Positions 1,500 to 49,101 are shown, counted from the stretch's first letter. The stretch: DNA of 64,000 nt from an uncultured Methanosarcinales archaeon (GCA_964550525.1 CAZJZJ010000001.1:36860-100859); one strand, 5' to 3'. Numbers and translations are program-made. The notes: generated from the sequence alone by a model not told the origin.

Positions 1500-3128
1500 T
1501 TAATTGTGTTCAAGAGGCAATATCTCGATTTGCCCTACTTTTCGCCTTAGATCGTTACCTGCTTGTGGAATCGGGATAACTTCGCCAGAATCTGGATCAC
1601 CTACAGCAATTTTTATAGAGTACTTTCCAGGATTTATCGATTTAGCTATATTAATATTATAGGTTTCTTCAAATATTTCGCCTGCAGCCCATTTAGAGGT
1701 CTGTTTTTGCGGGGAATGATCATGGTGAAAAACAATATTGCCTTTACCATCAAGAAAATGTACAAAGAATCTGTAATCCTTATTCATCTTCTTAATAGAT
1801 TGCCATACATAAGTTATATCAAAGCTATCTCCTTGTGTAATTTTACCATTATTGGTACTATAGTTAATAAAATCTATCTCAAACAACCCCATGCCCTTAA
1901 CTAAAGGGGTAAAAACCCATTTGTTCTGTCTTTGATGTGGATAAAGGCATTTGTCTACTTGGATATAGAATAACTCGTCATTGTTTATACATTTATACAG
2001 GCTAAGGTTTTTGGGATAACCATCAAATGCAATGTACTTATGTTCATGGAAAGAGTAGTAGTTATAGAAAGCGCTTATAAGTACAGATAGGACAATTACT
2101 ACAGCAATAATAGCTTGTTTCTTTTTAGCAATAAAAACAAATAGATAATAAAGACCAATAGCAGATAAAGGCACAAAACCAAGCAATAAGTAGTAGACCA
2201 GTCTTTCGTAAGCAATAAGATATGTGTACTTCTTGATCTCAAAAAATAAAAACATGAAAATACCGACGATAAACCAGCTAACAAAGACCTTGCTGATTTT
2301 TTTCTTAAAAGAATAAAACAATCCTAAAAAAGATACTAATAAAGGTAAAACACCGTAAACAAAAAATAAGTTATAATTGATCTGCGGTTCTGTCCACCCA
2401 AACCTGAATACCATAGATTTAAGAATGAATTGCCTATTTAGATTGTGTTTAGTGAAGAAGTAAATAATAATTACAAAAACAGCTGCAGATAGAATTGAAA
2501 CAACTATAAATTTAATATTGAGTTTCCTAAGATTCTTAATTATTTTTGGTAAACTAAATAGTAAAAATACTAAAGTGACTAAAAGAACATATAATGCCGA
2601 GAATGCGTGTATATAGAGAAGTAAGATTAGTGTTATTAATGTTAATAGGATATAACGTATTTTAAAACTACCAATAGCCTGTACCATAAAGAAGGTATAT
2701 AAGTAAACAAAGACAAACGCCATTGTTAACGGTACAAAGAACCATGGCCCAAGAATGTTTGAGTTTGTTTTTAATGAAGCAAAGAATATCATTGAAAAAA
2801 GAGAAATCCAATAATTCTTTGTAGTTGATTTAACTAAGGAGAACAAAGCTAAAGATGCTAAACAAGCAAATATTGCTGGAAGAAACCTATAGAACCACAA
2901 AATATTCACAAATTTGCCCAAAAAACCAAGAAAATAGATAAACCCTATCTCTGGTTTGTAAGTTTGCCCAGTGTCATGGGTTAAAGAGTAGGATATCCTA
3001 GCCCATTCATCCCCATGAAAAGGATACTTATAACTGAAATGGGGGCTATAAACCAGAATAAATGTAGCTAACAAGACCAAAACAACCAGAATTGTCTGTA
3101 GATTCTTCTTTTTAAGCTTAAGTTTCAA
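1500..3128 (-). CDS. Polytopic membrane protein, probably a GT-C fold glycosyltransferase (ArnT/PMT-like) with a C-terminal soluble domain
   Basis: About 12 predicted TM helices lie in the first ~400 aa, with a DE/HGDEW-type acidic loop motif near the N-terminus and a C-terminal ~130-aa soluble domain. It sits beside a GT2 dolichol-phosphate-sugar synthase-like gene. The family assignment is inference. Confidence 0.45.
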   Translation of the reverse strand: MKLKLKKKNLQTILVVLVLLATFILVYSPHFSYKYPFHGDEWARISYSLTHDTGQTYKPEIGFIYFLGFLGKFVNILWFYRFLPAIFACLASLALFSLVKSTTKNYWISLFSMIFFASLKTNSNILGPWFFVPLTMAFVFVYLYTFFMVQAIGSFKIRYILLTLITLILLLYIHAFSALYVLLVTLVFLLFSLPKIIKNLRKLNIKFIVVSILSAAVFVIIIYFFTKHNLNRQFILKSMVFRFGWTEPQINYNLFFVYGVLPLLVSFLGLFYSFKKKISKVFVSWFIVGIFMFLFFEIKKYTYLIAYERLVYYLLLGFVPLSAIGLYYLFVFIAKKKQAIIAVVIVLSVLISAFYNYYSFHEHKYIAFDGYPKNLSLYKCINNDELFYIQVDKCLYPHQRQNKWVFTPLVKGMGLFEIDFINYSTNNGKITQGDSFDITYVWQSIKKMNKDYRFFVHFLDGKGNIVFHHDHSPQKQTSKWAAGEIFEETYNINIAKSINPGKYSIKIAVGDPDSGEVIPIPQAGNDLRRKVGQIEILPLEHN

Positions 3129-3265
3129 TAAAACCCCCTTTAGCAGTTATTTGTCGGAATTATTTAAATTTTTAGTTTATCCACATTAAAAACCAAAATA
3201 TTTATATACCTACTTCCCAAATATTAACATTAATTAGATGACACTATAAAAATCCGGGTGATAGC

Positions 3266-4471
3266 ATGTTTAAACATAAAAAAAGGGGACAACAAGGCGG
3301 TGGAGCTGCTGCTGTGCTTGTCGCATTAATTGGTTTATTTGTTGTGTTGTATATTATATTTCTACCACAGGCTGAGCGTGAAGACTTACTTGGTGAAGGA
3401 AATGGAGATTCTGATGATAATGGGGATTCAGATAGCAAATATAATAAAACGCTACTACTAGCACATCCAGGAAACCTGGATTATTTAAGCCAAACTGAGG
3501 TTGAGCATCGGATGCCTTCGCTGAATCTATATACAAAAAAAGAAGGTGAAGTTCTAAAAGAACTAAATTCTATGTATCTTAAACATAGTTTATTCACACA
3601 GAAATACGAGACTTTAAGATTTGATGTTGATGATCCAGCTAACACTGAGAATGCACTGATTAGTTTTCTAGTTGATGCTCATGATGGAGTGCTATCAGTT
3701 GATGTAAATGAGAATAACATATTCAATAAAGAGATTGAAACTGCAAATATAGAGCCAATCAAGATACCAGAAGAACACATTAAACAGACAAACGAAATCG
3801 TGTTTAAGGTTTCTGGTCCTGGTTTTGCATTCTGGAAAAGTAACGAATATATTCTACAAAAGGTTACTGTAACCGCAGATGTTGCTGATATAAGTGGTCA
3901 AGAAAGCACAACAACCTTTATAGTTGAAGAGAGTGAAAAGAATAACTTGAAAAAGGCTTATGTAAAATTTTTCCCAGATTGTGTGCCAGGAGAAGTAGGT
4001 AAGCTGGTTGTTAACCTCAATAACCAAAACATATTGTCTGCTGTGCCCGATTGTGGGATATTAAACTCATACGAATTTCTGCCACACCACTTAGTGGAAG
4101 GGGAGAATAGGTTAGAATTTAGGGCAGAATCAGGTAGATATCTCATTGACCAGATTAAAGTAAAGTCTGAGTTAAAACAGCCAAGGAATTATATCTATGA
4201 TTTTGAATTAGATAGTGACCAATATAGTGATATTGTATCTAAAGGAAACAAGACGCATGTTAACTTGACCATGTTGTTTGAGAATGATGATAAATACAAA
4301 GAAGCAGAGATAATAATTAATGATAGGCAAAGACATATGGAAACAAAGGATAAGATGTATTACAGGTTGATTGATGATTTTGTAAAAGAGGGTTACAATT
4401 ATATCAAGATAGTACCAAAATCGCAAATGTACATCGTTGATCTTAAAGTAGAAATCAGAAAACGAAAGTGA
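3266..4471 (+). CDS. Hypothetical membrane-anchored extracellular protein (N-terminal signal anchor, acidic Gly/Asp-rich linker)
   Basis: The N-terminus has a basic stretch followed by the hydrophobic helix AAAVLVALIGLFVVLYIIFL. The remainder is hydrophilic. I recognise no catalytic motifs. Confidence 0.5.
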   Translation: MFKHKKRGQQGGGAAAVLVALIGLFVVLYIIFLPQAEREDLLGEGNGDSDDNGDSDSKYNKTLLLAHPGNLDYLSQTEVEHRMPSLNLYTKKEGEVLKELNSMYLKHSLFTQKYETLRFDVDDPANTENALISFLVDAHDGVLSVDVNENNIFNKEIETANIEPIKIPEEHIKQTNEIVFKVSGPGFAFWKSNEYILQKVTVTADVADISGQESTTTFIVEESEKNNLKKAYVKFFPDCVPGEVGKLVVNLNNQNILSAVPDCGILNSYEFLPHHLVEGENRLEFRAESGRYLIDQIKVKSELKQPRNYIYDFELDSDQYSDIVSKGNKTHVNLTMLFENDDKYKEAEIIINDRQRHMETKDKMYYRLIDDFVKEGYNYIKIVPKSQMYIVDLKVEIRKRK

Positions 4472-4521
4472 TTGAAACCAAAAGAGGTGGATTATAGGGT
4501 TTATTCTAGTTTAGAAAGAAA

Positions 4522-6597
4522 ATGGTAAGTGAAGAGGAATTAGCAAAGGAGATAGTAACAGAGCTTCTTAAGAGATACTCCAAACATGGTATGACTAAAG
4601 AAGAAGCCAGAACTTATGGTGCTAGGTTTGAAGGTGTAACTAGATCTGAAAATGAGCATGTTAGAAGGGTCTGGTACGATAACCATCTTAAGTCTATTCT
4701 TCAAAAAGCTGCTAATTCAGGTGATAATAAGGCGCAAGCATGTTTACAGGGTAGGTTTTATGAAGAAGTAAAAGAAAAAAAGCAAGACGAAAAAACAAAA
4801 CGAAAACAGGCTAAAGCACAAGAAAAAACTGCCAAAGCCCAACTAGAGACTGCTGAAGCTGAAAAAGCTGCAGCACCCCTAAAACTATTCCCCCATGGAG
4901 CATTTGATGTTTTGATTATTGTAGGTATCATCAATCACCTCTCTGATTGGTGGTTTTGGGGTTTTCAAAAGACAGGAATGAGCTTTTTGTTTGATTTTTT
5001 GATTGCGTTTTTCACTTTTCTATTCGCATTCGGCCCATTTAATGATAAAGGTAATATCAATGTTAAAGGCGCGTCTGCCTGTATTGTTGCTTGGTTTATT
5101 GAAGTTGAATTATTTCCAATGCTAGGTAGCCGGATTATTGGTACTTCAACACCAACTCTAATAAAAGTGTTGCTAGCAAAGCATCTCTGGCCAGTATGGG
5201 TGTTTTTTGGGTTGATGTATACTGGAAAAACAGAAGGAGGATTCACTTGGATTGCAAAGTTTGCTAGATGGTGTCTTGCTGTTTTCTGGATTTTTATATT
5301 GATAACACCGATGAAAGCCTACATGATGGATGCTTATTTAGAGGATATGTCAGAAGAACAGAGAGAGGAGGTTTTTGGTGCTGTTACTGAAAGTTTTAAT
5401 GAGAGTAAAACAAGTTGGGCAGCAGTTTGGGAGTGTTGGAGGCATTCGATCTTCGGCTTGGGTGCAGGCCAAGCAGGGGCATACGAGAAATGTATTGAAG
5501 AGAAAAGGAACCCGCCTGAAAAACAAACACAGTACGAGGTTGCTAGGAGCGAGGACTCTATAATTGTTGCTCTTAAACCAATTAAGAGTAAAAAAACATT
5601 CAAAGCAGAAGAAGATATTAAAGTTAGCGCAGTATTTGAGATAAAAAGCGAATCTAAAGATGTTAAGATAGAAGGGGCTTCTTGTTCTTTCAACAAAGGT
5701 CCAAAAGGAAAAGAAGAAAAGGTCGTACAAGGTGTTGCAAAATTTGAAGGGATAGGCATAGAGGGCGGAACTTTTAGGAACAGACAATTTGATTTAACCT
5801 GTGAGTTAAACAAAGGGGCTCTTGAAGAGGGAGAGTATACACCAGTATTTAATGTTGATTTGGCTAAACTAGATAACAAAGCCACTTGGGAACTTTACTT
5901 CATGTATAAAGATACTTTAGATGAATATATTGGGCACACCAGACAACCACAAGAACTAATCAAGAAGATAAGAGCCAGTGAAGAATTTGGAGAACTTGTT
6001 GGTGGGTTGACTATTGGAAAAAGGGGAATAGTATCAACATGCGATGGTGGAGTAGTTTGCCTTAACCTTGGTAGATCTAAAGAACTTATTACACCACCCA
6101 TATATGGAATAACACCTACAAATTTCATAAAGATTTTTGCTAGGGTCAAAAACCAGAATAAAGGTAAAATAAGAAAACAAGGTAAGATTACACTAACAGT
6201 ACCAGAAGGATTTGAAGCTGTCAAAGGAGAGGGAGAAAACGATCGATGCAAGGACTTCGGTAGAGAAAGTATGACAGAAGAAGGTGATAGGCTTTATGAG
6301 TTAGAAAGTAAGATAGACCTCACATCGTTTGGTAAAGACGAGGAAGAGTATGGTAAGGAATTTGCTTCGTGCACTATTGCTGTGACAGGTTATAGAAATT
6401 TGGTTGGTGTCTCCACTGATAAGATTAAGAATGCTGAGATCGAAGTTATGTCTAACGCGCTTGGAAACATCAATGATGCGCATCCTGCTAGGTTCGGTTT
6501 AAGTGTAGATGGTTTTGAATACAGATTAACTGAACGTGCAGAACAAATTACTATAAAAGGATCTGAAAATGAAGAAGACGCGAGAGCAGTTACATAA
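4522..6597 (+). CDS. Hypothetical polytopic membrane protein with an N-terminal cytoplasmic coiled-coil and a large C-terminal extracellular domain
   Basis: A K/E/A-rich coiled coil occupies aa ~80-120, followed by roughly 5-6 TM helices (aa ~125-265) and a ~400-aa hydrophilic C-terminal region. It is encoded between other surface protein genes. Confidence 0.5.
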   Translation: MVSEEELAKEIVTELLKRYSKHGMTKEEARTYGARFEGVTRSENEHVRRVWYDNHLKSILQKAANSGDNKAQACLQGRFYEEVKEKKQDEKTKRKQAKAQEKTAKAQLETAEAEKAAAPLKLFPHGAFDVLIIVGIINHLSDWWFWGFQKTGMSFLFDFLIAFFTFLFAFGPFNDKGNINVKGASACIVAWFIEVELFPMLGSRIIGTSTPTLIKVLLAKHLWPVWVFFGLMYTGKTEGGFTWIAKFARWCLAVFWIFILITPMKAYMMDAYLEDMSEEQREEVFGAVTESFNESKTSWAAVWECWRHSIFGLGAGQAGAYEKCIEEKRNPPEKQTQYEVARSEDSIIVALKPIKSKKTFKAEEDIKVSAVFEIKSESKDVKIEGASCSFNKGPKGKEEKVVQGVAKFEGIGIEGGTFRNRQFDLTCELNKGALEEGEYTPVFNVDLAKLDNKATWELYFMYKDTLDEYIGHTRQPQELIKKIRASEEFGELVGGLTIGKRGIVSTCDGGVVCLNLGRSKELITPPIYGITPTNFIKIFARVKNQNKGKIRKQGKITLTVPEGFEAVKGEGENDRCKDFGRESMTEEGDRLYELESKIDLTSFGKDEEEYGKEFASCTIAVTGYRNLVGVSTDKIKNAEIEVMSNALGNINDAHPARFGLSVDGFEYRLTERAEQITIKGSENEEDARAVT

Positions 6598-6601
6598 AAA
6601 G

Positions 6602-7600
6602 ATGTCAAAAAGATATATAATCGGATTAGTACTAATCCTAGTATTTATTCTAGCAACAGGAGCTAAGTGTAAATCCTCTAATCTATTAAAAAAAGATCGT
6701 GGGGGTGGGGCGGCGTTGCCAACATCCAAGCAATTTAATACTGGTACAAAGGGCTTAGAGATCGAATTCTTAGAGTACATGCCGCCAGAAGATATACTTG
6801 AAGACTCAGATTTCAGGATTGGTCTAAAAGTAACTAATGCAGGTACACACGATTTAGATGATGCAGTGCTTTACATGAATATTGATGACGATTTAATAGG
6901 AATACAAGAGACTGATGAAGACATTGAATTAATACCTAGTCTAAAAGGGAAGAATCAGAATTATCCTGAAGGTGAATTCCATGATATTGAATTTGGTGCA
7001 AAGACAAAAAGAGTAAAAGCAGATAAGACCACCACTATAAAGGCCTTGGTATGTTATAAGTATACAACAAAAGCAAGTGTAGATGTCTGTATCAACCCAT
7101 ACTCATTAAAGAAGCTTAAGATAGGTGGAGAAGAAGGGTGTAAAGTAGGTGACGTTTCTTTGTCAGGTGGGCAGGGTGCGCCTGTAGCTATAGAAAAGGT
7201 TGAAGTAAAACAAACTTCGTTAGATGCTAGTTCTTTTGAGATTACTTTTATTATACATATAGATAATAGAGGTGGAACAAAGGATCATGTCAGAAAACTT
7301 GAATCCTATGACAAAGAATGTAAAGGCAAGAAATTGTTTAAGAAAGTGGAAGATGCAGATTATGTCAAGGTTAATAATGTCCAGATTTCAAAGTACAGCC
7401 TAAAAGAAGGCAGTGTAGAGTGTAAACCGTTGGAGAAAGGGCAACTCAAATTAGATGATGGTGAAGGAGAACTGGTGTGTAAAGCAAAGCTAATGAAGAA
7501 GTATGGTTCGTACCTAAGCCCGCTTAGGGTAGACTTATCCTATGGTTACATAAGTACCATAAAAGAGACTATTAAGATAGAAAACATCGCTAAGGTTTGA
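6602..7600 (+). CDS. Secreted or lipid-anchored protein, paralog 1 of 3, with two CARDB-like beta-sandwich motifs
   Basis: The track ORF begins at 6569; the likely start is the internal Met at 6602 (MSKRYIIGLVLILVFILATGAKC, a signal peptide with a Cys after the h-region). Motifs shared with the next two ORFs are GLEIEF, xVTNAGThDL, CYxYxTKA..VC, SGGQGAPV and LSYGYI. Confidence 0.6.
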   Translation: MSKRYIIGLVLILVFILATGAKCKSSNLLKKDRGGGAALPTSKQFNTGTKGLEIEFLEYMPPEDILEDSDFRIGLKVTNAGTHDLDDAVLYMNIDDDLIGIQETDEDIELIPSLKGKNQNYPEGEFHDIEFGAKTKRVKADKTTTIKALVCYKYTTKASVDVCINPYSLKKLKIGGEEGCKVGDVSLSGGQGAPVAIEKVEVKQTSLDASSFEITFIIHIDNRGGTKDHVRKLESYDKECKGKKLFKKVEDADYVKVNNVQISKYSLKEGSVECKPLEKGQLKLDDGEGELVCKAKLMKKYGSYLSPLRVDLSYGYISTIKETIKIENIAKV

Positions 7601-7647
7601 TAATTACCGAAAAACTTAAATATGCTCAAAAGAAGTATTGATTAAAA

Positions 7648-8604
7648 ATGTATTCCAACTGTAAAAAAAGGTGCATATTAGTGTTCTTACTAATAGTAGT
7701 TGTATTAATGAGTACTGGAGCTAGATGTAGCCCTAAAAAAACTATAGGCAAGGAAAAAGGCGAGAGTGCTGGTGGCAAAGTTATTGAAAGCGAGGTGTAC
7801 AAAGGTAAAAAAGGTTTGGAGATGGACTTTGTAAAGGATCTCCCGCCAAACAAGATTTATTCTACAAACGAGCTAAATCTGTTAGTTGAACTAAGGAATG
7901 TGGGTGCATATGCAGTAAAACCAAAAATCCTTATAAGTGGCTATGACCCTGATATTATCACTGGAATTGAGGCTATACAGTACCCAGAGGAACTTGAAGG
8001 AAAAAAGAGGTTTATGCCTGAAGGTGGTTATACCACAGTACAGTTTGACTCAAATGAGATAGGACTACCAGAAGGCACTGATTCTTATAAACCTAAATTT
8101 GTTGTAACTGCCTGTTATGAGTACGGTACTAAAGCGAACCCTGTAGTATGTATAGACCCTAGTTTATATGATGTGGCTGTAGAAGAAAGAGCATGCGAAG
8201 TTAGGTCTGTTTCAATGAGTGGAGGCCAGGGTGCACCTATAGAGGTTAGTAGTGTTGATGTTGATACCATAGGTAATAAAGCCCATTTTAAGATACATTT
8301 ATCTAATGTTGGTGGAGGAAGGGTTGTTGAATACATTCCTTGTCCAAACGAACTAGAATATAAAGAATTAAACATGGTAAGTTATGATGTTCTTATGTCC
8401 AGTCGTGGCCCTGATAAATGCAGTCCACATGAAGATGGTGATTATAGTGTAAGACTAGTGAACGGTAAAGCAATAATCTATTGTACCTTCACTATACCCA
8501 ACGAAAACACCAACGCTTATTCTACTCCTTTAGAGATTGAACTAAGTTATGGTTATATGCAATCAATTTCAAAGGATGTTGAGATTATTAGGATAGACGA
8601 ATAG
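7648..8604 (+). CDS. Secreted or lipid-anchored protein, paralog 2 of 3, CARDB-like
   Basis: It has the signal peptide LVFLLIVVVLMSTGARC and the shared motifs GLEMDF, ELRNVGAYAV, CYEYGTKA..VC, SGGQGAPI and LSYGYM. Confidence 0.6.
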   Translation: MYSNCKKRCILVFLLIVVVLMSTGARCSPKKTIGKEKGESAGGKVIESEVYKGKKGLEMDFVKDLPPNKIYSTNELNLLVELRNVGAYAVKPKILISGYDPDIITGIEAIQYPEELEGKKRFMPEGGYTTVQFDSNEIGLPEGTDSYKPKFVVTACYEYGTKANPVVCIDPSLYDVAVEERACEVRSVSMSGGQGAPIEVSSVDVDTIGNKAHFKIHLSNVGGGRVVEYIPCPNELEYKELNMVSYDVLMSSRGPDKCSPHEDGDYSVRLVNGKAIIYCTFTIPNENTNAYSTPLEIELSYGYMQSISKDVEIIRIDE

Positions 8605-8672
8605 AAACCTTTAAATATGCATAATAATATTATTATTAAGATAATTACAAAAACAAAGAGGAGGTTTAGAAT

Positions 8673-9656
8673 ATGAATAAAAGGATTATAAGCATAATAA
8701 TGGTTGGTTTTCTTTTAATTGCTCTTGGTTGTGGAGATAAAGATAAGGGAACTACTGCCGATGGTGGAGGTACCACTTCTAGAGGTGGTTCAACAGATTC
8801 ATTTATTGGTGGAGATGTTGGTCTAGATGTTAAGTTTATGGAAGGTGCTCCTCCTAGCGAGGTATATGACCTAGAATATAGCTTTGGTATAAATGTAAGG
8901 TTAGAAAACCAAGGTGAATATGATGTTCCAAAAGATTCAGTAACCCTAAAAATCACTGGGATAGATCCTTCTGATTTTGGTAAAAACGGTTCTGCATTAA
9001 CTAAAACAAACAGCGAAGAATTACTTGGAGCAAAGATAGATCCCCAAGGTAATGAAATTGCTGGCGGTATTGCAAATATTGATTTTGAGGGTTTACAAGC
9101 TAAACCAGTTACAGGCAATGTACAGTTTAATATCAGATCTGAAGTATGTTATCCATATGGCACAACAGCAATTGCGCAAGCATGTATACTTGAAGATTTA
9201 CTAGGAACAACCAGGAAAGCTGGTGAAGAGCCATTTTGTGAGGTTACTGGAGAGAAAACTGTGGAGAATTCTGGCGCCCCAGTACAGATAACATCATTCA
9301 GCCAATCTGCTACTGGAAAGGATAAGGTCTCTTTCACATTTGAAGTTGGCCATGTAGGGGAAGGTCTATTGTTTAAGAATGCCTCTAACTGTGAAGCTGG
9401 CCTAGCTAACAAAGATAAGGTATATGTTAAAGTTGTCAGTGATATGCCTGACTTATCTTGTAGCGGTCTAAGTGGAAGCAATGAAGGAGAAGTCTCTTTA
9501 TATGGTGAAGAAGGTGGCGAAAAGAGGTCTGTTGTATGTACACAGAAACTTGCTGCAGACAGGACAGATTCAGAAAAACAGGTAAAGATTACATTACAGT
9601 ATGCCTATAAAGAGAAGGTTGATACAGAACTACTTGTTAAACATGTAGAGGAATAG
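8673..9656 (+). CDS. Secreted or lipid-anchored protein, paralog 3 of 3, CARDB-like; preceded by a strong GAGGAGG Shine-Dalgarno sequence
   Basis: It has the signal peptide IIMVGFLLIALGCG (a lipobox-like LALGC) and the shared motifs GLDVKF, RLENQGEYDV, CYPYGTTA..AC, NSGAPV and LQYAYK. Confidence 0.6.
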   Translation: MNKRIISIIMVGFLLIALGCGDKDKGTTADGGGTTSRGGSTDSFIGGDVGLDVKFMEGAPPSEVYDLEYSFGINVRLENQGEYDVPKDSVTLKITGIDPSDFGKNGSALTKTNSEELLGAKIDPQGNEIAGGIANIDFEGLQAKPVTGNVQFNIRSEVCYPYGTTAIAQACILEDLLGTTRKAGEEPFCEVTGEKTVENSGAPVQITSFSQSATGKDKVSFTFEVGHVGEGLLFKNASNCEAGLANKDKVYVKVVSDMPDLSCSGLSGSNEGEVSLYGEEGGEKRSVVCTQKLAADRTDSEKQVKITLQYAYKEKVDTELLVKHVEE

Positions 9657-9685
9657 ATTTTTTATTCTTTCTTTTTTTATTAATT

Positions 9686-10642
9686 CTATTTTTTACTTAG
9701 AAGAACAAAGTTAGCTAGTAAGGACTCTAATTGTACAAACTCATCACTACCTTCAACCATTCTAAACTCAATTTCACCACATTTATCTACCATTTCAACC
9801 TTTTTAGTGTTATCTATGTCTAGCCCCCATACTTGTTTTTGTATTTGTTTTACAACATCCAACCCAGAAAGACCATAATTTTGCATGACATTCAAGAGTT
9901 TATTGCGTGCGTCAATAAATTTATTCTGAACAGCTAAATCGAGGATTGCCTTGATTTCCTTTGGTTGTGCCACAGAAGCCATTGAGTAGATAAGCTCTTC
10001 TGTAATGTTCTTGCTTATTGCTGCACAACTTTGAAGAACATTCTCAGCTTTCCTGCAATCTCCGCCACTGATTTCATATAATGCCTCCTTTACCTTATTG
10101 TCTACCTTAAGTTTTTCTTTTGTAATAATGTTATCTATTACAGAAACCAAGTCCTCTTTGCCTAAAGGCTTAAACTTAAACACTGCGCATCTTGATTGGA
10201 TTGGGTCTATAATTTTTGAAGAGAAATTGCAACTTAAGATAAACCTACATGTTTGAGTAAAGTTCTCCATTGTTCTTCTTAAAGCTTGTTGGGCTTCTTT
10301 TGTAAGCGCATCACATTCATCAAGATAGATTATTTTGAAAGGCACATCCCCTATTGCTTTGGTTCTTGCAAAATCCTTAACCTTATTCCTGATTATATCA
10401 ATACCTCGTTCATCTGATGCGTTTAGTTCTAAAAAATTGTTTCTCCAACCAGAATCAAATATGCTCTTTGCTATTACAAGGGCTAAAGTAGTCTTACCAA
10501 CACCAGCAGGACCAGAAAACATCAAATGAGGCATGTTCTTTTGTTCAACAAAGGCCTTGACTTTACTTACAACATCGTTCTGGCCTTTAATATCTGCAAA
10601 CATCTGTGGCCTATACTTTTCTGTCCATATAAGTTCACTCAT
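9686..10642 (-). CDS. rfcS: Replication factor C small subunit (clamp loader AAA+ ATPase)
   Basis: It carries the Walker A motif GPAGVGKTT, a DEAD-type box in YLDECDALT, SRC in IQSRCAVFKF, and the N-terminal WTEKYRP motif. Its length, 318 aa, is typical for an intein-free RfcS. Confidence 0.9.
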   Translation of the reverse strand: MSELIWTEKYRPQMFADIKGQNDVVSKVKAFVEQKNMPHLMFSGPAGVGKTTLALVIAKSIFDSGWRNNFLELNASDERGIDIIRNKVKDFARTKAIGDVPFKIIYLDECDALTKEAQQALRRTMENFTQTCRFILSCNFSSKIIDPIQSRCAVFKFKPLGKEDLVSVIDNIITKEKLKVDNKVKEALYEISGGDCRKAENVLQSCAAISKNITEELIYSMASVAQPKEIKAILDLAVQNKFIDARNKLLNVMQNYGLSGLDVVKQIQKQVWGLDIDNTKKVEMVDKCGEIEFRMVEGSDEFVQLESLLANFVLLSKK

Positions 10643-10718: not shown

Positions 10719-10982
10719 CTAGATAATGTCTTCTTCAGCAATGACCATGAAATCTCCAATAGCCAGTACTGCGCTAAAAGGGATAAGTATATTACTCGCT
10801 TTATCCTTCTCCAGTTCCAATTTCTCAGTGTATGATGTTGGACTTGTAAGTACAATGTGGATTAATTCTCCAGAACGTGTTTCAAAGATAATATCCCCTA
10901 CTTCACCAAACCTTTTGCCGGTTTTACTAACTACTGTTTTACCAATAAGTTGCCTAGAAAATTTTTTTTCATCGTCTGCCAT
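10719..10982 (-). CDS. PRC-barrel domain protein
   Basis: This 87-aa protein shows the pattern LIGKTVVSKTGKRFGEVGDIIFETRSGELIHIVL, typical of archaeal PRC-barrel proteins. Confidence 0.55.
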   Translation of the reverse strand: MADDEKKFSRQLIGKTVVSKTGKRFGEVGDIIFETRSGELIHIVLTSPTSYTEKLELEKDKASNILIPFSAVLAIGDFMVIAEEDII

Positions 10983-30663: not shown

Positions 30664-33600
30664 ATGGCAGCAGAATCAAAAAAACTTAGCAATTATTTCT
30701 TATCCTTAGATGCAGAACTAAAAAAAGCATATAAAATTGCGTCTGCAGCAAGAAAAAAAGGCCTAGACCCTGAAGACAAAGTTGATGTACCTCTTGCTAG
30801 GAACATGGCACAAAGAGTTGAGGGTCTTGTTTCAGATATGATCCCACAACTAGTCAACACAGGTATGACTAAACGCATAGGCGAACTGGAAAAAGCGTAT
30901 AGCAAACTAGATTGGAGAGTTGCACTCAAAATTGCAGAAGAGGTAGCTAAAGGTAAATTCTGTAAATTTAAAGATAAAAAAGAAGCCATGGAAGCAGGTA
31001 TAAGAACCGGTTTCTCTTACATGACTCAAGGCATAGTGTCTGCACCGCTTGAAGGTTTTATTGGTCTTGAAATAAAAAAACGTAGAGATAGTAAGGGGCA
31101 GTACCTATCAGCTTGTTATGCTGGTCCAATAAGGGGTGCAGGTGGAACAGGTGCAGCATTTTCTATTGTACTAACTGATTATATCCGTTCAGTTATGGGC
31201 TATAGTAGGTATGATCCTTCTGAGCATGAAATAAAAAGGTTTGTTTCCGAGATCTACGACTATCATGAACGTGTAACAAACCTACAATACCTACCAACAC
31301 CAGAAGAAATAGAATTCCTAAGTCAAAAACTTCCTGTTGAAGTGAGTGGAGATCCGACAGAAGAGATTGAAGTTTCAAACTATAAGGATCTGCCTAGGGT
31401 TAAAACCAACCGGATTCGTGGGGGCATGTGTCTTGTAATGGCAGAAGGGCTTGCACAGAAAGCACCAAAATTATGGAAACGGTTGGTCAAATGGGGCAAA
31501 GAATATGGTTTAGATTGGTCATTTTTAGAGGCTTTCTTGATTTTACAAAAAAAGATTAAAGCAAAAAGTGATAAAACAGTGGAAGGAGAAACTAAGATAA
31601 CTCCGAACTATACTTTTATTAAAGACATTGTTGCGGGTAGGCCTGTATTAACACACCCTATGGCCCTTGGCGGGTTTAGGTTAAGGTATGGCCGTAATAG
31701 GTTATCTGGTTTTTCTGCTGCCTCAATCCATCCAAATACAATGAGGGTATTAAACAGCTATATTGCTACAGGCACACAATTAAAAATTGAAAGGCCAGGA
31801 AAAGGAGCAGCACTTACTCCATGCGATACAATAGAACCGCCTATAGTCAAATTAAATGATGGTAGCGTCATTAAATTAGATTCAGAACAAAAGCTTAGAG
31901 ACAACAAAAAAAAGATTAAAGAGATTTTATTCCTAGGAGATATCTTATTTAATTATGGAGATTTTTCAGAGAATGGGCAACGGCTTGCCCCTGCAGGGTA
32001 TTGTAAGGAATGGTGGGTTCAGGAGCTGGAAAAGTCAATAGTAACCACCTTTGGCAGCCTTGACCTAGAAAAAACATCAGGGTTTGCTGGGGTGGAAACA
32101 AAAGTTGTTCAAGACGTAATAGACCACCCATTAACCCACAACATTGGATCTAAGCAGGCTTTTGCGATCTCTACTAAGATGGGTTTGCCATTACACCCCT
32201 TACACACATACTACTGGAACTCTATACAAATAAAACAACTGGGTTCTTTATTAAACTGGTTTAGTAAAGCAAATCTGGTTGATGAGAAAGCCACCAATAT
32301 AAAACTGATCTTGCCCTTGGATAGAGAGCCTAAGCGCATACTTGAGCTTGTAGGAGTCCCGCATTTAGTGGTTTCTTCAGAATATATTGTTATTCTAGGG
32401 GAGGCCCTAATGTCTTTATTATTCAATCTCGGTTTTGAATCTGGGATTGCGGTTAAAGCTGCGATTGAAAAAGTTGCAAAACTAGATGGTAACCAGAAAA
32501 CCATTAATGCAATTAATCTGTTGGCAAATGTAAAGGTCAATGATCTATGTGGAACTTTTGTTGGGGCCAGAATGGGTAGACCTGAAAAAGCAAAAATGCG
32601 GAAACTTACAGGCAACCCGCAGGTTCTTTTCCCTGTTGGTGATCAAGGAGGTAGACTAAGGAGTTTTCAAGCAGCGATGGAAACAGGCAAGATCAAAGCA
32701 GATTTTCCGCTTTTTCGTTGTGATAAATGCAATAAGGATACAATATACAAAACATGTGAACATTGTGGGAAGAAAGCAAAACCAAAATTTTTCTGCCCAA
32801 TATGTGGGATAATTGACTCTGAAACCTGCCCCAAACATGGTAAAACAAAAACGCACGCCAGACAAGAGATAGATATTAAATATTATTTCAATTCTGCATT
32901 AGGTAAATTAGGTATGAATACCTATCCAGATTTAATAAAGGGTGTGAGGGGTACATCAAATAAGGACCATATCCCGGAAAACCTAACAAAAGGCATACTG
33001 CGTGCAAAACATAGTGTGTACGTGAACAAAGACGGTACAACAAGGTATGATATGTCAGAATTACCAATAACTCATTTCAAACCAAAAGAGATTGGTACAC
33101 CTTTAGATAGGTTAAAACAACTTGGTTATACTCACGATATTAATAATAAACCACTTATTGACGTAGAGCAGATTCTTGAGATCTTCCCTCAGGATGTAAT
33201 TCTTCCATCAGGTACACAGACCACAGATGAATCTGCAGATGTGGTTTTGTTGCGTGTTGCAGCGTTATAGATGAGTTACTTGTAAAGCATTATAATCTAC
33301 AGCCATATTATGGGATAAAAAATAAGTCTGATCTTGTTGGACAAGTTATACTTGGTCTAGCACCACATATCTCTGCAGCAACTGTTGGAAGGATAATTGG
33401 TTTTTCAGAAACACAAGGCTGTTTTGCACACCCCCTTTGGCATGCAGCCTTAAGAAGAGACTGTGATGGCGACGAGTGCAGTGTGATTTTGTTAATGGAT
33501 ACTTTACTTAATTTTTCTAGACAATACTTACCTGATAAACGTGGTGGGAGGACAATGGACAGCCCATTGGTACTAACTTCCAAGGTTGTGCCATCCGAAG

Positions 33601-34214
33601 TAGATGACCAGGTTCTTGGTTTAGATGTAACTTGGAAATATTCTTTGGATTTTTACCAAGCCACATTAAACAAAAAGTTTCCATGGGAGATAAAGGTCGA
33701 ACAACTTAATTCAAGAGTTGATACAGAAAAACAGTACGAGAAGATTGGTTTTACCCACGATACTAGCAATGTAAACTCAGGCATTAATTGTTCAGCATAT
33801 AAGACTTTACCAAGTATGAGAGAAAAACTCGAAGGGCAGATGGAGATAGCAACAAGAATTCGAGCCGTTGACGAAAAAGATGTAGCCAGGTTGGTTATAG
33901 AAAAACATTTTCTAAGAGATATTAAAGGCAACCTACGGAAGTTTTCTCAGCAGAAGTTTCGTTGTGTAAAATGTAATGAAAAGTATCGTAGACCACCACT
34001 TATTGGAAAATGTACTGCTTGTGGCGGTAAGATTATTTTTACTATCTCAAAAGGCTCTATTGAGAAGTACCTCGGACCAAGTATTGAGCTTGCTGAAAAA
34101 TTTGATCTGCCACCTTACCTTAAACAAACGTTAGAGCTTACTAAAACCAGGATAGAAGGGGTATTTGGTAAGGAAAAGGAAGTGCAAAGCGGTTTAGGTG
34201 CGTGGTGTGGTTAG
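30664..34214 (+). CDS. polC: DNA polymerase II (PolD) large subunit DP2, encoded in two frames and interrupted by an apparent -1 frameshift at ~33265-33270 (868-aa N-part in frame 1; C-part continues in the -1 frame)
   Basis: The N-part (30664..33270) has DP2-like sequence throughout and ends ...DVVLLRVAAL*. The -1 frame is open from 33231 and reads SVIDELLVKHYNLQPYYGIKNKSDLVGQVILGLAPHISAATVGRIIGFSETQGCFAHPLWHAALRRDCDGDECSVILLMD, which is the conserved DP2 catalytic segment with the Asp triad motif. A single-base slip at TTA|TAG restores an uninterrupted ~1183-aa DP2 of normal length. Confidence 0.85.
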
Positions 34215-44295: not shown

Positions 44296-47200
44296 GTGGT
44301 GAAAAATAAGTTAGCGATTTTATTACTCTTTATTATCATTAGTTTAGTTTCTGTTAGTTTTGTGAGTGCACGTGCGTGTGATAATATATGGAAATGGCGA
44401 AATCATTGGTGTCCTATTGTACCTACTTCAGAAGATTTCCGAGAAGTTTCAATGGATGATGATTTTAATTTCCAGGTATTAAGTATTTGTTATGATGAGA
44501 CCAATACGGGCGTTTATTATACTTATTTTTATCTGGATGAAGATAAAGATGTAAAGTTTTATTTGACTAGTACAGGTTCTGCAGGTGTTAAATTATCTAT
44601 TGATGGCAAAAAAGTAGCTACACACGGGAAAGAAGCAGAAGTCGTTCTTGAAAAGGGATGGCATTATGCAGAGATTGTTATCCGAAGATGGGGGCATATT
44701 AATTTTGATGTAAGCCTTGAAGTAAACGATGGAACATTATCAAAAATAGCCACAAAAGCAGGTACAATGGAAGGATGTGAATGGGACGAAGATAAGGATG
44801 GTTTTGTTGAAGGAGACGATTATACTGAGGATGATTGTGATGATTCTGATCCAACTATCTACCCTTTTAGAATTTTTGAAGAAGAGCCATGCGATGGGAT
44901 ACTTCACGATTGTAAGAATAGGCAAAGATTTGAAATTGATGGCGAGTCTAGAGAAGCTGTCTATAACGAAATCTGTGAGGGTGATGATAATCTTGCAACA
45001 TGTGAAAGCCGTTGTGGTGAGTGGGGTGAAACAATAACACCTGACACGAACAGATGTTGTGGTGATGATAGCATCAGTGAATTTGGTTTAATACAAGAAA
45101 AGAATGATGATGAAACGATTTGTAAAAAAGGCGAAGATTCGTGTGATTGGGGATGGCTAACCACATCAGAGGCAGGTTCAGGTAAGATACTTACTGTAAG
45201 AAGAGATATTGTAAAAAATGAAGACATTATAATGGATAAAAACCGGGAAATAATCAAACAACAAGGCAAAACAAAATTTGTACCCTGTGGTAATTTTTCA
45301 GCCGTAGTTGAGAAATATGGCCCCAATAATTGTACTGTTAATGTAGATTTTGGTGCAATTATATGTGAAAATCCGCCACTCTCAACAGAACTTGTAGAAC
45401 TGGGCGGTCCAAATAAGGATAACTTATCTATAGAAAATGAAGATGGCGTTTACCAAAAAAAGATTGATTTTTATATCTATTTAAATGAAGATATAACAGC
45501 AACAAAGACTGCAAAGATTTCTGCTAAAGCTGACAACAAATTAACATACTTACTTGATGGTAAACAAATCTTTAGTTTTACAAAAGAAGATCTTGCAGTG
45601 TGGGATCAGGAACCAGAAGTCTTTGAAACAGAATTTAAATATGGTAGCCGTGCTGGTTGGCGACACATTAGTTTACTTCTTGATAACTGGGGTGCTTATG
45701 GTGGCCTTGAAGTCTGGCACGAAATAGAGGGTTTTGAGACCCCTATTACAGATGTAGATACTGCAGGAGAATGCGATAATATTATTCCTTTAAGCGAGGC
45801 AGAACCAGTTACTGTACCAGACCCAGACATCAAATCAACAATCTATGATGTTATCCCTTTCAATAAAAAATGGTATGTGTGTGATCCAGAGGGAACTATT
45901 AGGTTGGATCCTGGTTATGGGACGAATATATTGGATGAATTTGATACACCACAGGTAGAGACCTCTACTGCTCTTCAATCAACTATCTCTTTGGATAGCC
46001 AGGGTGCTGGCGATACTGATTCTTATATTGGAGATGGGATTGATATTGATGCTGTTGCAATTGAAGATGCTTTAGAGGGGTTTAGTATTGGAGGTAGTCC
46101 TGTATCTGCCTCTTTAGGGAGTAGTGGTACTCCAGGGAGCAGGAGCAGTACTGAAATTGAGTATGATGCTTTTATGTGTTACAAAGAAGGTGATATGGGG
46201 TCAATTGGAGAATGTTGTGGCAATGATTTAGGTATCTGTTTTAACAAAGGAATATTAGGGCTACCAAAAGTAAGGCGTATGGGGGAGCCGTTATCCTATA
46301 TCGTCGAAGTCCATGATTTAAACAAGAAGAAACACAACACAGTTCTTCAGATACCTGTAAAACATAAAGCACGTGAAGATATTCCACCCTATACCTATTC
46401 GATTCCCGGTGGCGATGTGCCAATTTTACATTATACAAATTGGAAAGGGTTCAAGGCGCTTGAATTCTATTTTGCTTCTTTACGTCCAGCTTTAGTTAGA
46501 CTGATCATTAAAGATACAAATGAAAAAGAACATGATTTTGGTCCAATCCTAAAATACGCTATTGAAAATAAAAGAATAACTGAAGACGGTGAACTAGCAC
46601 CCTCGCAACAGATGCGACACATTTATATTCCTATTGATGGCGAACTCGGGGAAGTAGATAAAGGCAATATCTCTGAGATAATATTTACAGCAAGGAAGCA
46701 AGATCTACCAGCGGACTACATTGAAACAAAGATTATAGACAAAATGGATCGTGAAAGCTACAATGTATGGGTTTTCGATAGAATGCATCTTACCTATGAT
46801 TATGAGACAGAATCTGAAAAAAATAAGTACTGTTCCTTTACAAAGGAATGGGTTTATGACTTTGATGTAGAAGATAATGAAGCAAACCCCATCTGTAACC
46901 AGATACCTTCATTCACTTGGACAGGTACACAATGTTGTGGTGATGATATCGTATATACAGATGAAACATACGAGGATGAAAGCGGTGGCTGCTGGAAAGG
47001 CAACTTTATTGCAGATGATACAACATTGATGGAGATAGAATTTGAACATGATACCTATAACGGAAAACACACAGATATCTGTAGAGGTACAAGATGCGAA
47101 TACCCTATTTTATATCAAGATTGGCCTTCTGAAGTAACTGAGATAGGCGATGTAAGTACAGATTCTGATTTTTATAATGTTAGGATAACAAACACAGAGG

Positions 47201-49101
47201 ATGCAAAAGAAGCAACCATCTCTGTAGAGTACGTACCGCAACAAATCTTGTTTTTCGGTGGTGCGTTTAGAGGCTGTGCTGCAGATGGTTTTGAAGATAT
47301 TATCGATGCTGAACATGAATATGGTTATTGTAAAGTGATTTCAGGCAGCAACCATTTCTGTTCTTATGGAAGTAAGTTTGCTGGTGCTTTTAATAATGGT
47401 AAACCATATTGGAGTTCTGAATCTTCTGGCACAGCTCCTTCTTACCTAAGGAATAATAGCAAAGAGTTACCTGGAGATAACACAGATGATCATTTTGGTA
47501 CAACTGAGATTAATCCAGATCATAATGATAAAGGTTGTTGTCCAGCTGATTATTGTTGGAACGGGACTGTTTGTGTAGAAGGGATAGAAGAACCTTTTAG
47601 TATAAGCAACTATGAATCTAGCCCAGAAGCATTCACAAAAAAGTTTAGTTACAATAATCCAACTGCAGATTTTGACATGTATGTTTGTTACAAAGAAGAT
47701 GCTGTAGCTAACTGGAACAAAACACATTACAAAGAAGATTGGTATGATTCAGCAGATACAGCTGGCAGACGTATAGGTAGAGGTTATTGTATGGATGGTA
47801 GCCAGTGTTGGACAAGTGCTGGTTGTAAAGATAACGGCTGGTATACTAATGAAGAAAGAGGTTATTTCTCTGTAGGCAATGAGATGACTGACCGTTTCTG
47901 TGAAAATGGTAATTGGTCAACCAGGACAAAGCTGATAGCATTAGAGTTACTAAATTTTGTTAAAGATAAAGGGGATTACACCTTGTTTTGTGATACAAAC
48001 AAGAATGCACTTAATTTTTATACAGATTCCTGGAAACCCATAAATGAAGATACTAATAATTTCTGCGTGCTTGTATACAAAGAAAACAATGATGCTGATG
48101 TTGAGAAGAAAGTAGCTGTAGGTACATCATTGAATAAGCCTATAGAGGCGATAAAGCAGGTATTGTTGAACGAAGGCGTATTAAAAGGGGACACAACTCT
48201 TAGTATTTGTACAGATGCACCTGCCACAGAGGACAGTGTCTATGGGACTTATGTAAATTGTGACGGGAGCACCGATGTTGAAGAACAAAAACTCTGGTAC
48301 AATGCAAAAACAGAATCCCTGATCTATAGTGCACATGGTATAAATTTGCAATCTACAACAATCGTTTTTGCAGATTTCATGAACCTGCTTTTCAATCCTA
48401 TCATGGCTTTCACAGACATTGTCATAAATATTATTAGGCCCCAAACGACAGAGAGTCCAACTAATATACCTGTACCTGTTGAATACTGGGATCTATTCCA
48501 GTCAAAGGATTTCAAGACAGTTTATCTGGAAGAAAGCGGCGATATGACTGTAAGGGGTATAATCGAGCAAACAACTAGGGGCAAGAAATATCTTGCTATT
48601 GATTATGAGAATTCTCCAGTGGATATCTGCTCAGCAATCAGCCTGTACAATAAAAAGATAGGTGGGGAGTTTACTTGCCAACCTACAATAAACAATTCAG
48701 TATTAACATATAGGATTGCTTCTGAAACCACAGACATGATAGTCGGTTTCAAGGTATGGAAAGAAATCACTGCAAAGATTAGGTCAATAGATTTTGGAAG
48801 CGAATTAGGTGATACCGGTCCAGGAGCAGTAGTTAAAGATCTAGAAGAAAGCCATTATGCAAGAAAATACATTAAATTTGAAGCTGAAGAAAACGAAGAA
48901 GTTCTTTCTTATTATTGGGATCTAAATGTTACATCGACTGAGGAAGCAATTAACGGAGAAAGGTTTGGCAGGAAGATCACACACTACTATGAAGGGCCAG
49001 GAGATTATACAGTCACCTTAATTACAATAGGTAATGACGGTTCTTACTCAACTGATTCAATAGATATCGAAGTTACTGAAGAACCCGTAACAACTGGTTA
49101 A
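44296..49101 (+). CDS. Giant secreted Cys-rich surface protein 1 (1601 aa) with a cleavable signal peptide, a MopE-like acidic Cys motif, CCGDD motifs and a C-terminal PKD domain
   Basis: It has a GTG start and a GAGGG Shine-Dalgarno sequence at ~44286. The signal peptide is LAILLLFIIISLVSVSFVSARAC. The block CEWDEDKDGFVEGDDYTEDDCDDSDPTIYP lies at ~44776-44865. The motifs RCCGDD and QCCGDD are present. The C-terminal segment YYWDLNVTS...HYYEGPGDYTVTLITIGNDG is a PKD fold motif at ~48830-49098. Confidence 0.7.
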   Translation: MVKNKLAILLLFIIISLVSVSFVSARACDNIWKWRNHWCPIVPTSEDFREVSMDDDFNFQVLSICYDETNTGVYYTYFYLDEDKDVKFYLTSTGSAGVKLSIDGKKVATHGKEAEVVLEKGWHYAEIVIRRWGHINFDVSLEVNDGTLSKIATKAGTMEGCEWDEDKDGFVEGDDYTEDDCDDSDPTIYPFRIFEEEPCDGILHDCKNRQRFEIDGESREAVYNEICEGDDNLATCESRCGEWGETITPDTNRCCGDDSISEFGLIQEKNDDETICKKGEDSCDWGWLTTSEAGSGKILTVRRDIVKNEDIIMDKNREIIKQQGKTKFVPCGNFSAVVEKYGPNNCTVNVDFGAIICENPPLSTELVELGGPNKDNLSIENEDGVYQKKIDFYIYLNEDITATKTAKISAKADNKLTYLLDGKQIFSFTKEDLAVWDQEPEVFETEFKYGSRAGWRHISLLLDNWGAYGGLEVWHEIEGFETPITDVDTAGECDNIIPLSEAEPVTVPDPDIKSTIYDVIPFNKKWYVCDPEGTIRLDPGYGTNILDEFDTPQVETSTALQSTISLDSQGAGDTDSYIGDGIDIDAVAIEDALEGFSIGGSPVSASLGSSGTPGSRSSTEIEYDAFMCYKEGDMGSIGECCGNDLGICFNKGILGLPKVRRMGEPLSYIVEVHDLNKKKHNTVLQIPVKHKAREDIPPYTYSIPGGDVPILHYTNWKGFKALEFYFASLRPALVRLIIKDTNEKEHDFGPILKYAIENKRITEDGELAPSQQMRHIYIPIDGELGEVDKGNISEIIFTARKQDLPADYIETKIIDKMDRESYNVWVFDRMHLTYDYETESEKNKYCSFTKEWVYDFDVEDNEANPICNQIPSFTWTGTQCCGDDIVYTDETYEDESGGCWKGNFIADDTTLMEIEFEHDTYNGKHTDICRGTRCEYPILYQDWPSEVTEIGDVSTDSDFYNVRITNTEDAKEATISVEYVPQQILFFGGAFRGCAADGFEDIIDAEHEYGYCKVISGSNHFCSYGSKFAGAFNNGKPYWSSESSGTAPSYLRNNSKELPGDNTDDHFGTTEINPDHNDKGCCPADYCWNGTVCVEGIEEPFSISNYESSPEAFTKKFSYNNPTADFDMYVCYKEDAVANWNKTHYKEDWYDSADTAGRRIGRGYCMDGSQCWTSAGCKDNGWYTNEERGYFSVGNEMTDRFCENGNWSTRTKLIALELLNFVKDKGDYTLFCDTNKNALNFYTDSWKPINEDTNNFCVLVYKENNDADVEKKVAVGTSLNKPIEAIKQVLLNEGVLKGDTTLSICTDAPATEDSVYGTYVNCDGSTDVEEQKLWYNAKTESLIYSAHGINLQSTTIVFADFMNLLFNPIMAFTDIVINIIRPQTTESPTNIPVPVEYWDLFQSKDFKTVYLEESGDMTVRGIIEQTTRGKKYLAIDYENSPVDICSAISLYNKKIGGEFTCQPTINNSVLTYRIASETTDMIVGFKVWKEITAKIRSIDFGSELGDTGPGAVVKDLEESHYARKYIKFEAEENEEVLSYYWDLNVTSTEEAINGERFGRKITHYYEGPGDYTVTLITIGNDGSYSTDSIDIEVTEEPVTTG

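Follow-up and report, generated by a model that had tools for sequence, protein, structure and literature searches.

We analysed a window of archaeal DNA (64,000 nucleotides, GCA_964550525.1 CAZJZJ010000001.1:36860-100859, one strand, 5' to 3', numbered from its first letter) deposited under the name of an uncultured Methanosarcinales archaeon, with attention to five genes between positions 3,266 and 9,656. A preliminary description of this DNA had placed five same-strand open reading frames (ORFs) here and read them as a cell-surface module. ORF calling confirms that these genes are co-oriented and tightly spaced, and their products support a surface location. They encode the bitopic protein A (3266..4471, + strand, 401 aa), the polytopic protein B (4522..6597, +, 691 aa) and three secreted paralogues, C1 (6569..7600, +, 343 aa from ATG 6569 or 332 aa from ATG 6602), C2 (7648..8604, +, 318 aa) and C3 (8673..9656, +, 327 aa). 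We propose, tentatively, that this five-gene operon may encode a lineage-specific, membrane-anchored heteromeric envelope complex of Woesearchaeota-type DPANN archaea.

The median intergenic gaps A/B, B/C1, C1/C2 and C2/C3 across 42 loci are 39, -4, 42 and 34 nt, and the negative value corresponds to a B/C1 overlap that is typical of translational coupling. In the window, ATG 6569 overlaps B by 29 nt and ATG 6602 sits 4 nt past the B stop; the latter would be the more typical signal peptide start for C1 (MSKRYIIGL...), a small correction to the gene model.

C1, C2 and C3 are diverged paralogues with a predicted double-sandwich fold

The three C proteins, of ~320 aa, are readily connected by BLASTP: C1 and C2 align with E = 1e-33 at 28% identity over 323 columns, C1 and C3 with E = 2e-13, and C2 and C3 with E = 4e-13 over 286 columns. 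These alignments run past the signal peptide and through both domains, which bears out the earlier view of the three as diverged paralogues. Identity among them is only 25-31%, with C2 the best conserved and C3 the most diverged. The sequence blocks that had been listed as common to all three are complete in C1 and C2: the GL(E/D) block reads GLEIEF, GLEMDF and GLDVKF in C1, C2 and C3, respectively, and the N-x-G and CYxYxT...C blocks are present in the C proteins, whereas the SGGQGAP and LSYGY blocks of C1 and C2 are degenerate in C3, which has just SGAP and LQYAY.

With 24 family members as input, AlphaFold gave a confident model of C2 (mean predicted local distance difference test score, pLDDT, 88.6) that contains an N-terminal helix, a disordered or flexible linker, and beta-sandwich domains at residues ~57-169 and 198-314 that are joined by the conserved SGGQGAP segment. 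The two beta-sandwich repeats ascribed to each C protein are therefore modelled directly in C2, and homology to C2 predicts the same architecture for C1 and C3. Foldseek comparison of the C2 model with the PDB returned the integrin alpha-V leg, complement MG domains, the AglB C-terminal domain, RbmA and WxLIP, all with TM-scores <=0.23. Scans of all five proteins against Pfam, NCBIfam and PHROGs gave nothing significant, and a hidden Markov model (HMM) of the C family had zero matches among PDB sequences. CARDB (PF07705) and other E-set or PapD-like immunoglobulin (Ig)-like domains are among the closest known systems, but the specific identification of the C proteins as CARDB is not supported: the CARDB score of C1, 13.6 bits (E = 0.081), stays below the cut-off of 22.7, C2 and C3 give no hit, and none of the 24 database homologues has a Pfam domain precomputed. 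We regard the C proteins as a sequence family of their own, whose modelled fold is an Ig-like double sandwich of generic type.

This family is large. A word-indexed search found 24 C2 homologues, and an HMM search over the representatives of 1.84 billion clusters (50% identity) matched 3,297 of them with E <= 1e-3, including 1,662 with E <= 1e-30. A survey of domain fusions in long C variants gave one protein with an fn3 domain and was otherwise uninformative. N-glycosylation sequons are few throughout the module (none in C1 or C2, two in C3, three in A and one in B).

An invariant Cys ends the signal peptide of the C proteins

As had been described, the hydrophobic N-terminus of each C protein ends in a Cys, within TGAKC in C1, TGARC in C2 (Cys27) and LALGC in C3. 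This Cys is invariant in the 24-sequence C-family alignment and directly follows the hydrophobic region in 49/55 C1, 53/55 C2 and 54/55 C3 orthologues (89-98%), as it does in 16 of 17 of each C protein at the reduced, two-gene loci described below. As the test pattern for a lipobox we took [LVI][ASTVI][GAS]C behind a signal peptide, with conservation of the Cys. The family fits it: the strict bacterial-type form occurs in 32, 30 and 34 of 55 C1, C2 and C3 orthologues (55-62%), and in 55-94%, depending on the group, when two-gene loci are included. The window copies GAKC, GARC and ALGC fit the pattern in relaxed form only.

Six further Cys are invariant or nearly so in the C-family alignment, so that the N-terminal Cys would be left unpaired. 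A conserved Cys that ends the signal peptide and would have no partner leads us to predict that C1, C2 and C3 are lipidated lipoproteins. Proteins with a lipobox have been reported to be prevalent in DPANN archaea (PMC12462473). Like the archaeal lipobox lipoproteins that depend on AliA/AliB (Nat Commun 2025, PMC12462473), C1-C3 combine a Sec-type signal peptide, a lipobox-like motif and an invariant Cys; they differ in that two of the three window copies are charged at position -1, and lipidation of C1-C3 is a prediction from sequence.

Gene order is fixed in many species and selection is purifying

To follow the module across relatives, we scanned one genome per GTDB species for the motif GGQGAPV[SAG]V, taken from C2 orthologues. 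The scan retrieved 127 relatives, from which 80 loci were taken, and two homologues were also viewed in their contigs; gene order was assigned by HMM searches over all locus ORFs. The retrieved relatives all come from Woesearchaeota/Nanoarchaeota metagenome-assembled genomes. The order A-B-C1-C2-C3, followed by convergent genes for the replication factor C small subunit (RFC) and a PRC-barrel protein, is found in ~55 of 84 loci, each from a different species, and the remaining loci are mostly truncated by contig ends or have a reduced, two-gene form. C1, C2 and C3 fall into three clean orthologous groups in which the best match outside the genome occupies the same position in 55/55 cases for each gene. 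The triplication is therefore older than the radiation that gave rise to these species, and the divergence between the C paralogues is old and not ongoing.

The two-gene form was found at 19 loci (L017, L019-L021, L024, L031-L033, L035, L038, L039, L042, L045, L048, L050, L051, L057, L071 and L082), of which 17 were analysed. Only C2 and C3 orthologues stand beside RFC in this lineage, the second gene (D2) grouping with the C3 group (T3). In the four such loci that were read, fibrillarin/Nop5 lies upstream and RFC on the other side.

Nei-Gojobori estimates from ten moderately close genome pairs gave dN/dS values of 0.10-0.31 for C1, 0.07-0.17 for C2, 0.05-0.28 for C3, 0.08-0.22 for A and 0.16-0.38 for B, compared with 0.04-0.08 for RFC. 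Selection on all five genes is purifying, and looser than on RFC. These values bear on the suggestion in the preliminary description that the tandem paralogues reflect diversifying selection, as in host-recognition variation or phage evasion. An array of surface antigens or adhesins, each acting independently under selection by host, partner or phage, would account for paralogues that are only 25-31% identical, for a module that evolves 2-5 times faster than RFC at non-synonymous sites, and for the greater variability of B and C1 compared with the other members. It would not be expected to keep copy number and order fixed in ~55 species with perfect positional orthology, nor to show gene-wide dN/dS of 0.05-0.31 in the C genes, and beyond one ancient three-versus-two split we see no copy-number variation, no recent duplicates and no gene-conversion tracts. 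The three genes are syntenic and conserved in distant relatives, the very pattern that the preliminary description had named beforehand as telling against its proposal. At the gene level the data contradict the antigen array, which we consider most improbable, and the tempting inference from a tandem paralogue array to antigenic diversification is corrected here.

The same conservation speaks to a second alternative, in which the C proteins are independent extracytoplasmic lipoproteins that scavenge nutrients or bind substrates such as host wall fragments or lipids, and are merely co-transcribed with two unrelated membrane proteins. Many lipoproteins of other archaea are solute-binding proteins (PMC12462473), DPANN cells rely on scavenging, and those variants of B that carry a muramidase (see below) could free wall fragments. 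However, the C fold, a simple tandem of Ig-like sandwiches, offers no pocket of the periplasmic-binding-protein or lipocalin type, and neither an ABC transporter nor a permease adjoins the module in the window or in the syntenic loci examined. Strict co-retention of the three paralogues with A and B fits an assembly better, and we regard scavenging as quite improbable.

Protein A has a strikingly conserved membrane helix

Protein A, earlier described as signal-anchored, indeed has one transmembrane (TM) helix. A short basic N-terminus (KKRGQ) precedes this N-terminal helix (AAAVLVALIGLFVVLYIIFLP.AERE), and an acidic linker then leads to an ectodomain of two to three beta-rich repeats of ~100 aa outside the cell. 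Repeats 1 and 2 are related by hhalign (probability 97.7%, E = 2.5e-12), and repeat 3 is weakly similar. No Pfam or NCBIfam match was found for the window copy, nor any Pfam match for 32 orthologues. At loci L001 and L003 the corresponding cluster begins with a gene whose product is 38% and 33% identical to A, respectively. The TM helix and its flanks are strikingly conserved in an alignment of 32 A sequences, with the consensus AAAxLIAIIxLLIILYILFLPPxERxxLL, and a helix that is nearly invariant suggests a partner within the membrane. The A orthologue of L003 (L003:3845-5542, 565 aa) has an insertion of ~170 aa between repeats 2 and 3 that is rich in Cys, Asp and Glu (CGDVDGECISGCDEDEDIDCC...) and could indicate metal binding or disulphide knots.

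The N-terminus of A resembles an EppA-type class III signal and seldom fits the whole pattern. The motif [KR][GA]Q lies ahead of the hydrophobic helix in 30/42 orthologues, with a spacer of 0-8 small residues, and Gln at +1 is typical of EppA-type archaeal prepilins. The full class III (FlaFind) pattern, [KRDE][GA][ALIFQMVED][ILMVTAS]x3 directly before the hydrophobic helix, is matched by just 5/42 A proteins. We examined A as a candidate type IV pilin and rejected it on this count and on the lack of type IV filament machinery genes among those surveyed.

More broadly, the module might be a secretion or surface-filament system in which A is pilin-like, with a class III signal peptide, and B platform-like, akin to the archaeal 'novel secretion system' predicted from genome context. 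The system in question is the arCOG01314 'novel secretion / S-layer-associated' complex (Makarova, Galperin & Koonin 2015, PMC5898192), which comprises three distinct Ig-like families, some with 2-4 TM helices, and 5-TM proteins. Its neighbourhood, like the module, encodes almost wholly membrane and secreted proteins, and both systems are predicted from genome context only. These parallels, together with the [KR][GA]Q motif, favour the comparison. None of the components that define that system (arCOG01314/DUF4350, a MoxR AAA+ ATPase, vWA and DUF1616/PF07760) came up, however, in a survey that took in Pfam scans of the module's five proteins, of another 25 ORFs of the window and of the orthologue sets of A and B, together with the called genes of the syntenic loci L001 and L003/L004. 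PF07760 in particular has no match in 36 B or 32 A orthologues by Pfam scan. The module, the Pfam-scanned window ORFs and the called genes of L001 and L003/L004 likewise contain no secretion ATPase, TadC/PilC platform or prepilin peptidase. The spacer separates the motif from the helix in A, the class III pattern is rarely complete, and the C signals are of the lipobox and not the pilin type. All of this makes a filament system very unlikely.

Protein B is a rapidly evolving membrane protein with optional muramidase heads

Protein B had been described as polytopic with a large ectodomain, and its AlphaFold model agrees: a helical cytoplasmic N-terminus is followed by ~five TM helices (128-274) and a ~360-aa ectodomain consisting of two beta-sandwich domains (347-462 and 512-680). 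The mean pLDDT of 68.9 conceals a range from 87-92 in the first ectodomain to 50-65 in the TM part. B is the fastest-evolving member of the module, its orthologues being 13-24% identical to the window copy. Yet its position is maintained: 44/46 loci have exactly one ORF between A and C1, 494-1125 aa long and with 2-8 TM helices predicted, and jackhmmer connects all 43 positional B orthologues over window residues ~120-595. Database searches for homologues with the B sequence or a 36-sequence alignment returned only the window B, the candidates being swamped by TM-like words. An exact look-up of the locus ORFs showed B orthologues annotated as 'hypothetical' in every case except P0189, whose label 'TctB family protein' is probably a mis-annotation.

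The Foldseek list of PDB matches for B is essentially that of C2, namely generic tandem beta-sandwiches. Comparison of the B and C family profiles by hhalign was not significant (probability 10%); the likeness of B to C is therefore structural only, resting on the model and the list of fold matches. In the B alignment just three ectodomain Cys are invariant. No TM residue is invariant, which argues against a catalytic membrane domain.

Window B matches no Pfam family and has no SLT domain, but in a Pfam scan of B orthologues six relatives carry an extra lysozyme-like domain at the C-terminus. We assigned a GH23 SLT domain by a PF01464 score above 21.3 bits together with the catalytic Glu-Ser, GLMQ and AYNxG motifs. 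The domains of L065 (L065:4485-6920, 36.1 bits) and L036 (L036:4474-6894, 26 bits) exceed this cut-off, those of L003 (L003:5585-8962) and L029 (L029:4573-6930) fall just below it, and all four contain the E-S/T, G[LIV]MQ and YNG motifs. The B orthologues of L046 (L046:4500-7004) and L053 (L053:4695-6962) have a GH73-like glucosaminidase domain in the same C-terminal place. SLT-bearing B orthologues span at least three lineages. L046 and L053 belong to one clade with L065 and L036 (RFC 89-94% identical), so the head domain has been swapped between GH23 and GH73-like types within that clade.

Giant stand-alone SLT proteins of Woesearchaeota and Pacearchaeota have been read as binding or degrading the walls of bacterial hosts or prey (PMC8204110, PMC9723730). 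The module shares with these giant murein lytic-transglycosylase proteins (Castelle et al. 2021; Vigneron et al. 2022) a GH23 SLT domain placed outside a DPANN cell. They differ in that the giant proteins stand alone and reach ~3,000 aa, whereas the SLT or GH73-like domain of the module is an optional C-terminal addition to B in six relatives.

A proposed membrane-anchored envelope complex

We suggest that the products of the operon would sit as one complex on the outer face of the cell membrane. A would be tethered via its single, highly conserved TM helix and display two to three beta-sandwich repeats; B would be held by its bundle of ~five TM helices and present a tandem beta-sandwich ectodomain; and C1, C2 and C3 would be secreted, each with two Ig-like domains and tethered by a lipid attached to the Cys at the end of its signal peptide. 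Every complete copy of the module keeps the trio in fixed order, from which we infer that the paralogues occupy separate places in a heteromer and could not stand in for one another. The complex would be a fixed scaffold and not a variable antigen set. Lipidation, physical assembly of A, B and the C proteins, a stoichiometry and a contact function would all be properties of this proposed complex, whose likeliest role would be structural or adhesive, perhaps in organising the envelope at the point of contact between the small cell and a partner or substrate. The muramidase domain found in several related lineages lies at the tip of the B ectodomain, which suggests that in those lineages the complex faces a bacterial cell wall.

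Several observations weigh against this proposal. The 19 reduced loci keep only the C2-C3 pair, with no adjacent A, B or C1, and thus the five proteins are no obligate unit everywhere. The muramidase domain is missing from window B and from ~38/44 orthologues, so a role in cell-wall contact may hold for some lineages only. The TM part of the B model is of low confidence and has no fold match, and B may have an enzymatic or transport role. Window C1 and C2 carry a non-canonical Lys or Arg at lipobox position -1. In favour of the complex, the distance matrices of the five proteins co-vary after control for RFC (partial r 0.33-0.72, compared with 0.01-0.39 for the unrelated PRC neighbour), a signal that is suggestive only, as it is confounded by saturation and by the common fast evolution of surface proteins.

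A different arrangement of the same parts would make A, B and C1-C3 the anchor or stalk of an S-layer, a membrane-proximal base like SlaB of Sulfolobales that tethers a canopy of larger Ig-like proteins. All five proteins are membrane-tethered with Ig-like ectodomains, the module belongs to the stable core genome and is conserved like a housekeeping unit, and three paralogues could provide pseudo-threefold symmetry. S-layer proteins (7ptp, SbsC) appear low in the fold-match lists, there is precedent in predicted archaeal complexes that combine several Ig-like 'S-layer-like' membrane proteins (PMC5898192), and giant beta-sandwich proteins of 1,390-2,790 aa are encoded later in the window. SlaA/SlaB-type S-layers and the proposed DPANN S-layer proteins (NEQ300, Micr_00292 and MJ1_0160) are likewise membrane-tethered, operon-encoded, Ig-like multidomain envelope proteins. 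By comparison with these, however, the proteins of the module are much smaller and poor in sequons, are held by lipid and TM anchors, and make up a set of five different subunits; across the order they are far better conserved than is usual for S-layer proteins. Sequons number 0-2 in the C proteins, compared with 13-17 in the proposed DPANN S-layer proteins of ~1,000 aa (bioRxiv 10.1101/2023.10.27.564410). Orthologues hold 35-50% identity across the order, which is unusually high given that S-layer proteins usually have no detectable similarity above the genus level, according to a cited review. A muramidase fused to B would also be unexpected in a purely structural anchor. On balance an S-layer base seems rather doubtful.

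The giant proteins themselves are encoded by three consecutive + strand ORFs at 44296-49101, 49173-53345 and 54115-62487 (1601, 1390 and 2790 aa). Their beta-sandwich domains are of the PKD, CarboxypepD_reg (x3) and Big_13 types, and a search of the three gave no SLT domain. As adhesins or as the canopy of an S-layer, these proteins are more plausible candidates than C1-C3.

The anchored heteromeric complex that we prefer also has a bolder version, in which A-B-C1-C2-C3 is an undescribed, lineage-defining cell-contact machine. A lipid- and TM-anchored Ig-like platform would dock onto the partner envelope, and interchangeable muramidase heads (GH23 or GH73-like) would breach peptidoglycan in some lineages. 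We think this version unlikely; if true, it would give a first concrete molecular handle on how these uncultured archaea attach to, and feed on, bacterial hosts.

Woesearchaeota are among the most widespread uncultured archaea, and to our knowledge the mechanism by which they build their envelope and attach to partners is not known. Our full-text literature searches found no description of the A-B-C operon. Multi-subunit Ig-like envelope assemblies and archaeal lipoproteins are already known; what is new is this composition, the fixed trio of paralogues and the optional muramidase head. Castelle et al. 2021 reported a module restricted to Pace- and Woesearchaeota, with 51 families that are mostly unknown (PMC8204110); it probably includes the A, B and C proteins, uncharacterised there. 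Five co-inherited surface proteins of the core genome, outside Pfam and NCBIfam and very common in metagenomes, constitute a defined target for cryo-electron tomography, proteomics and heterologous expression. The muramidase heads of B tie the module to the long-standing idea that some Woesearchaeota live on bacteria, and for annotation the findings support defining three to five additional protein families and using the module beside RFC as a marker of synteny.

Genomic setting of the module

The module lies in a stable housekeeping region that includes RFC, TyrRS, PAN, FEN1, Cdc6, PolD and MCM. In the window, RFC (9686-10642, - strand) and the PRC-barrel gene (10719-10982, -) are convergent with the operon and lie outside it, both identified by ORF and by Pfam scans of the syntenic genes; nearly all loci have them next to the module. 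Other housekeeping genes of the window encode an archaeal-type TyrRS, TldD/PmbA, Trm5 and a tRNA-splicing endonuclease, and its G+C content is ~35%. The closest database relatives carry the name Candidatus Woesearchaeota. This gene content and these relatives identify the window as chromosomal DPANN DNA and not a mobile element. No tRNA genes were found in the 64-kb window.

A 137-nt AT-rich spacer lies 5' of A and includes a ribosome-binding site, GGTGA, 5 nt ahead of the start of A. On a reading of the bases themselves, the AT-rich region 3130..3265 (+), which has TATA-like elements, is a putative operon promoter region, and the T-rich spacer between the convergent C3 and RFC genes (9657..9685) is a likely bidirectional terminator. 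A sigma-70 promoter and terminator scan is uninformative for archaeal DNA.

Many of the syntenic loci come from third-party annotation (TPA) assemblies titled 'uncultured Methanosarcinales', yet their gene content and order are Woesearchaeota-like. The Methanosarcinales title is apparently a placeholder or annotation artefact.

Two - strand genes lie directly upstream of the operon and divergent from it: 328-1455 encodes a GT2 glycosyltransferase that has TM helices at its C-terminus, and 1500-3128 encodes a polytopic protein of 542 aa in which the C-terminal domain is a weak match to the glycan-binding domain Wzt_C. The upstream neighbour in L001 and L003/L004 is Pelota, so the link to a glycosyltransferase and Wzt_C is not conserved.

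The RFC small-subunit ORFs of four relatives (L013:9839-12724, L014:8359-10908, L035:12180-15218 and L039:10337-12634, all on the - strand) are 765-1012 aa long, compared with the usual ~320 aa, and probably contain inteins. Further along the window, the PolD large-subunit ORF (30664-33270, +) is only 868 aa long, and its catalytic-domain match ends at profile position 100/299. A separate ORF of 243 aa (33483-34214, +) follows after a gap of ~210 nt; the arrangement might come from a split gene, a frameshift, a misassembly or what is left of an intein.

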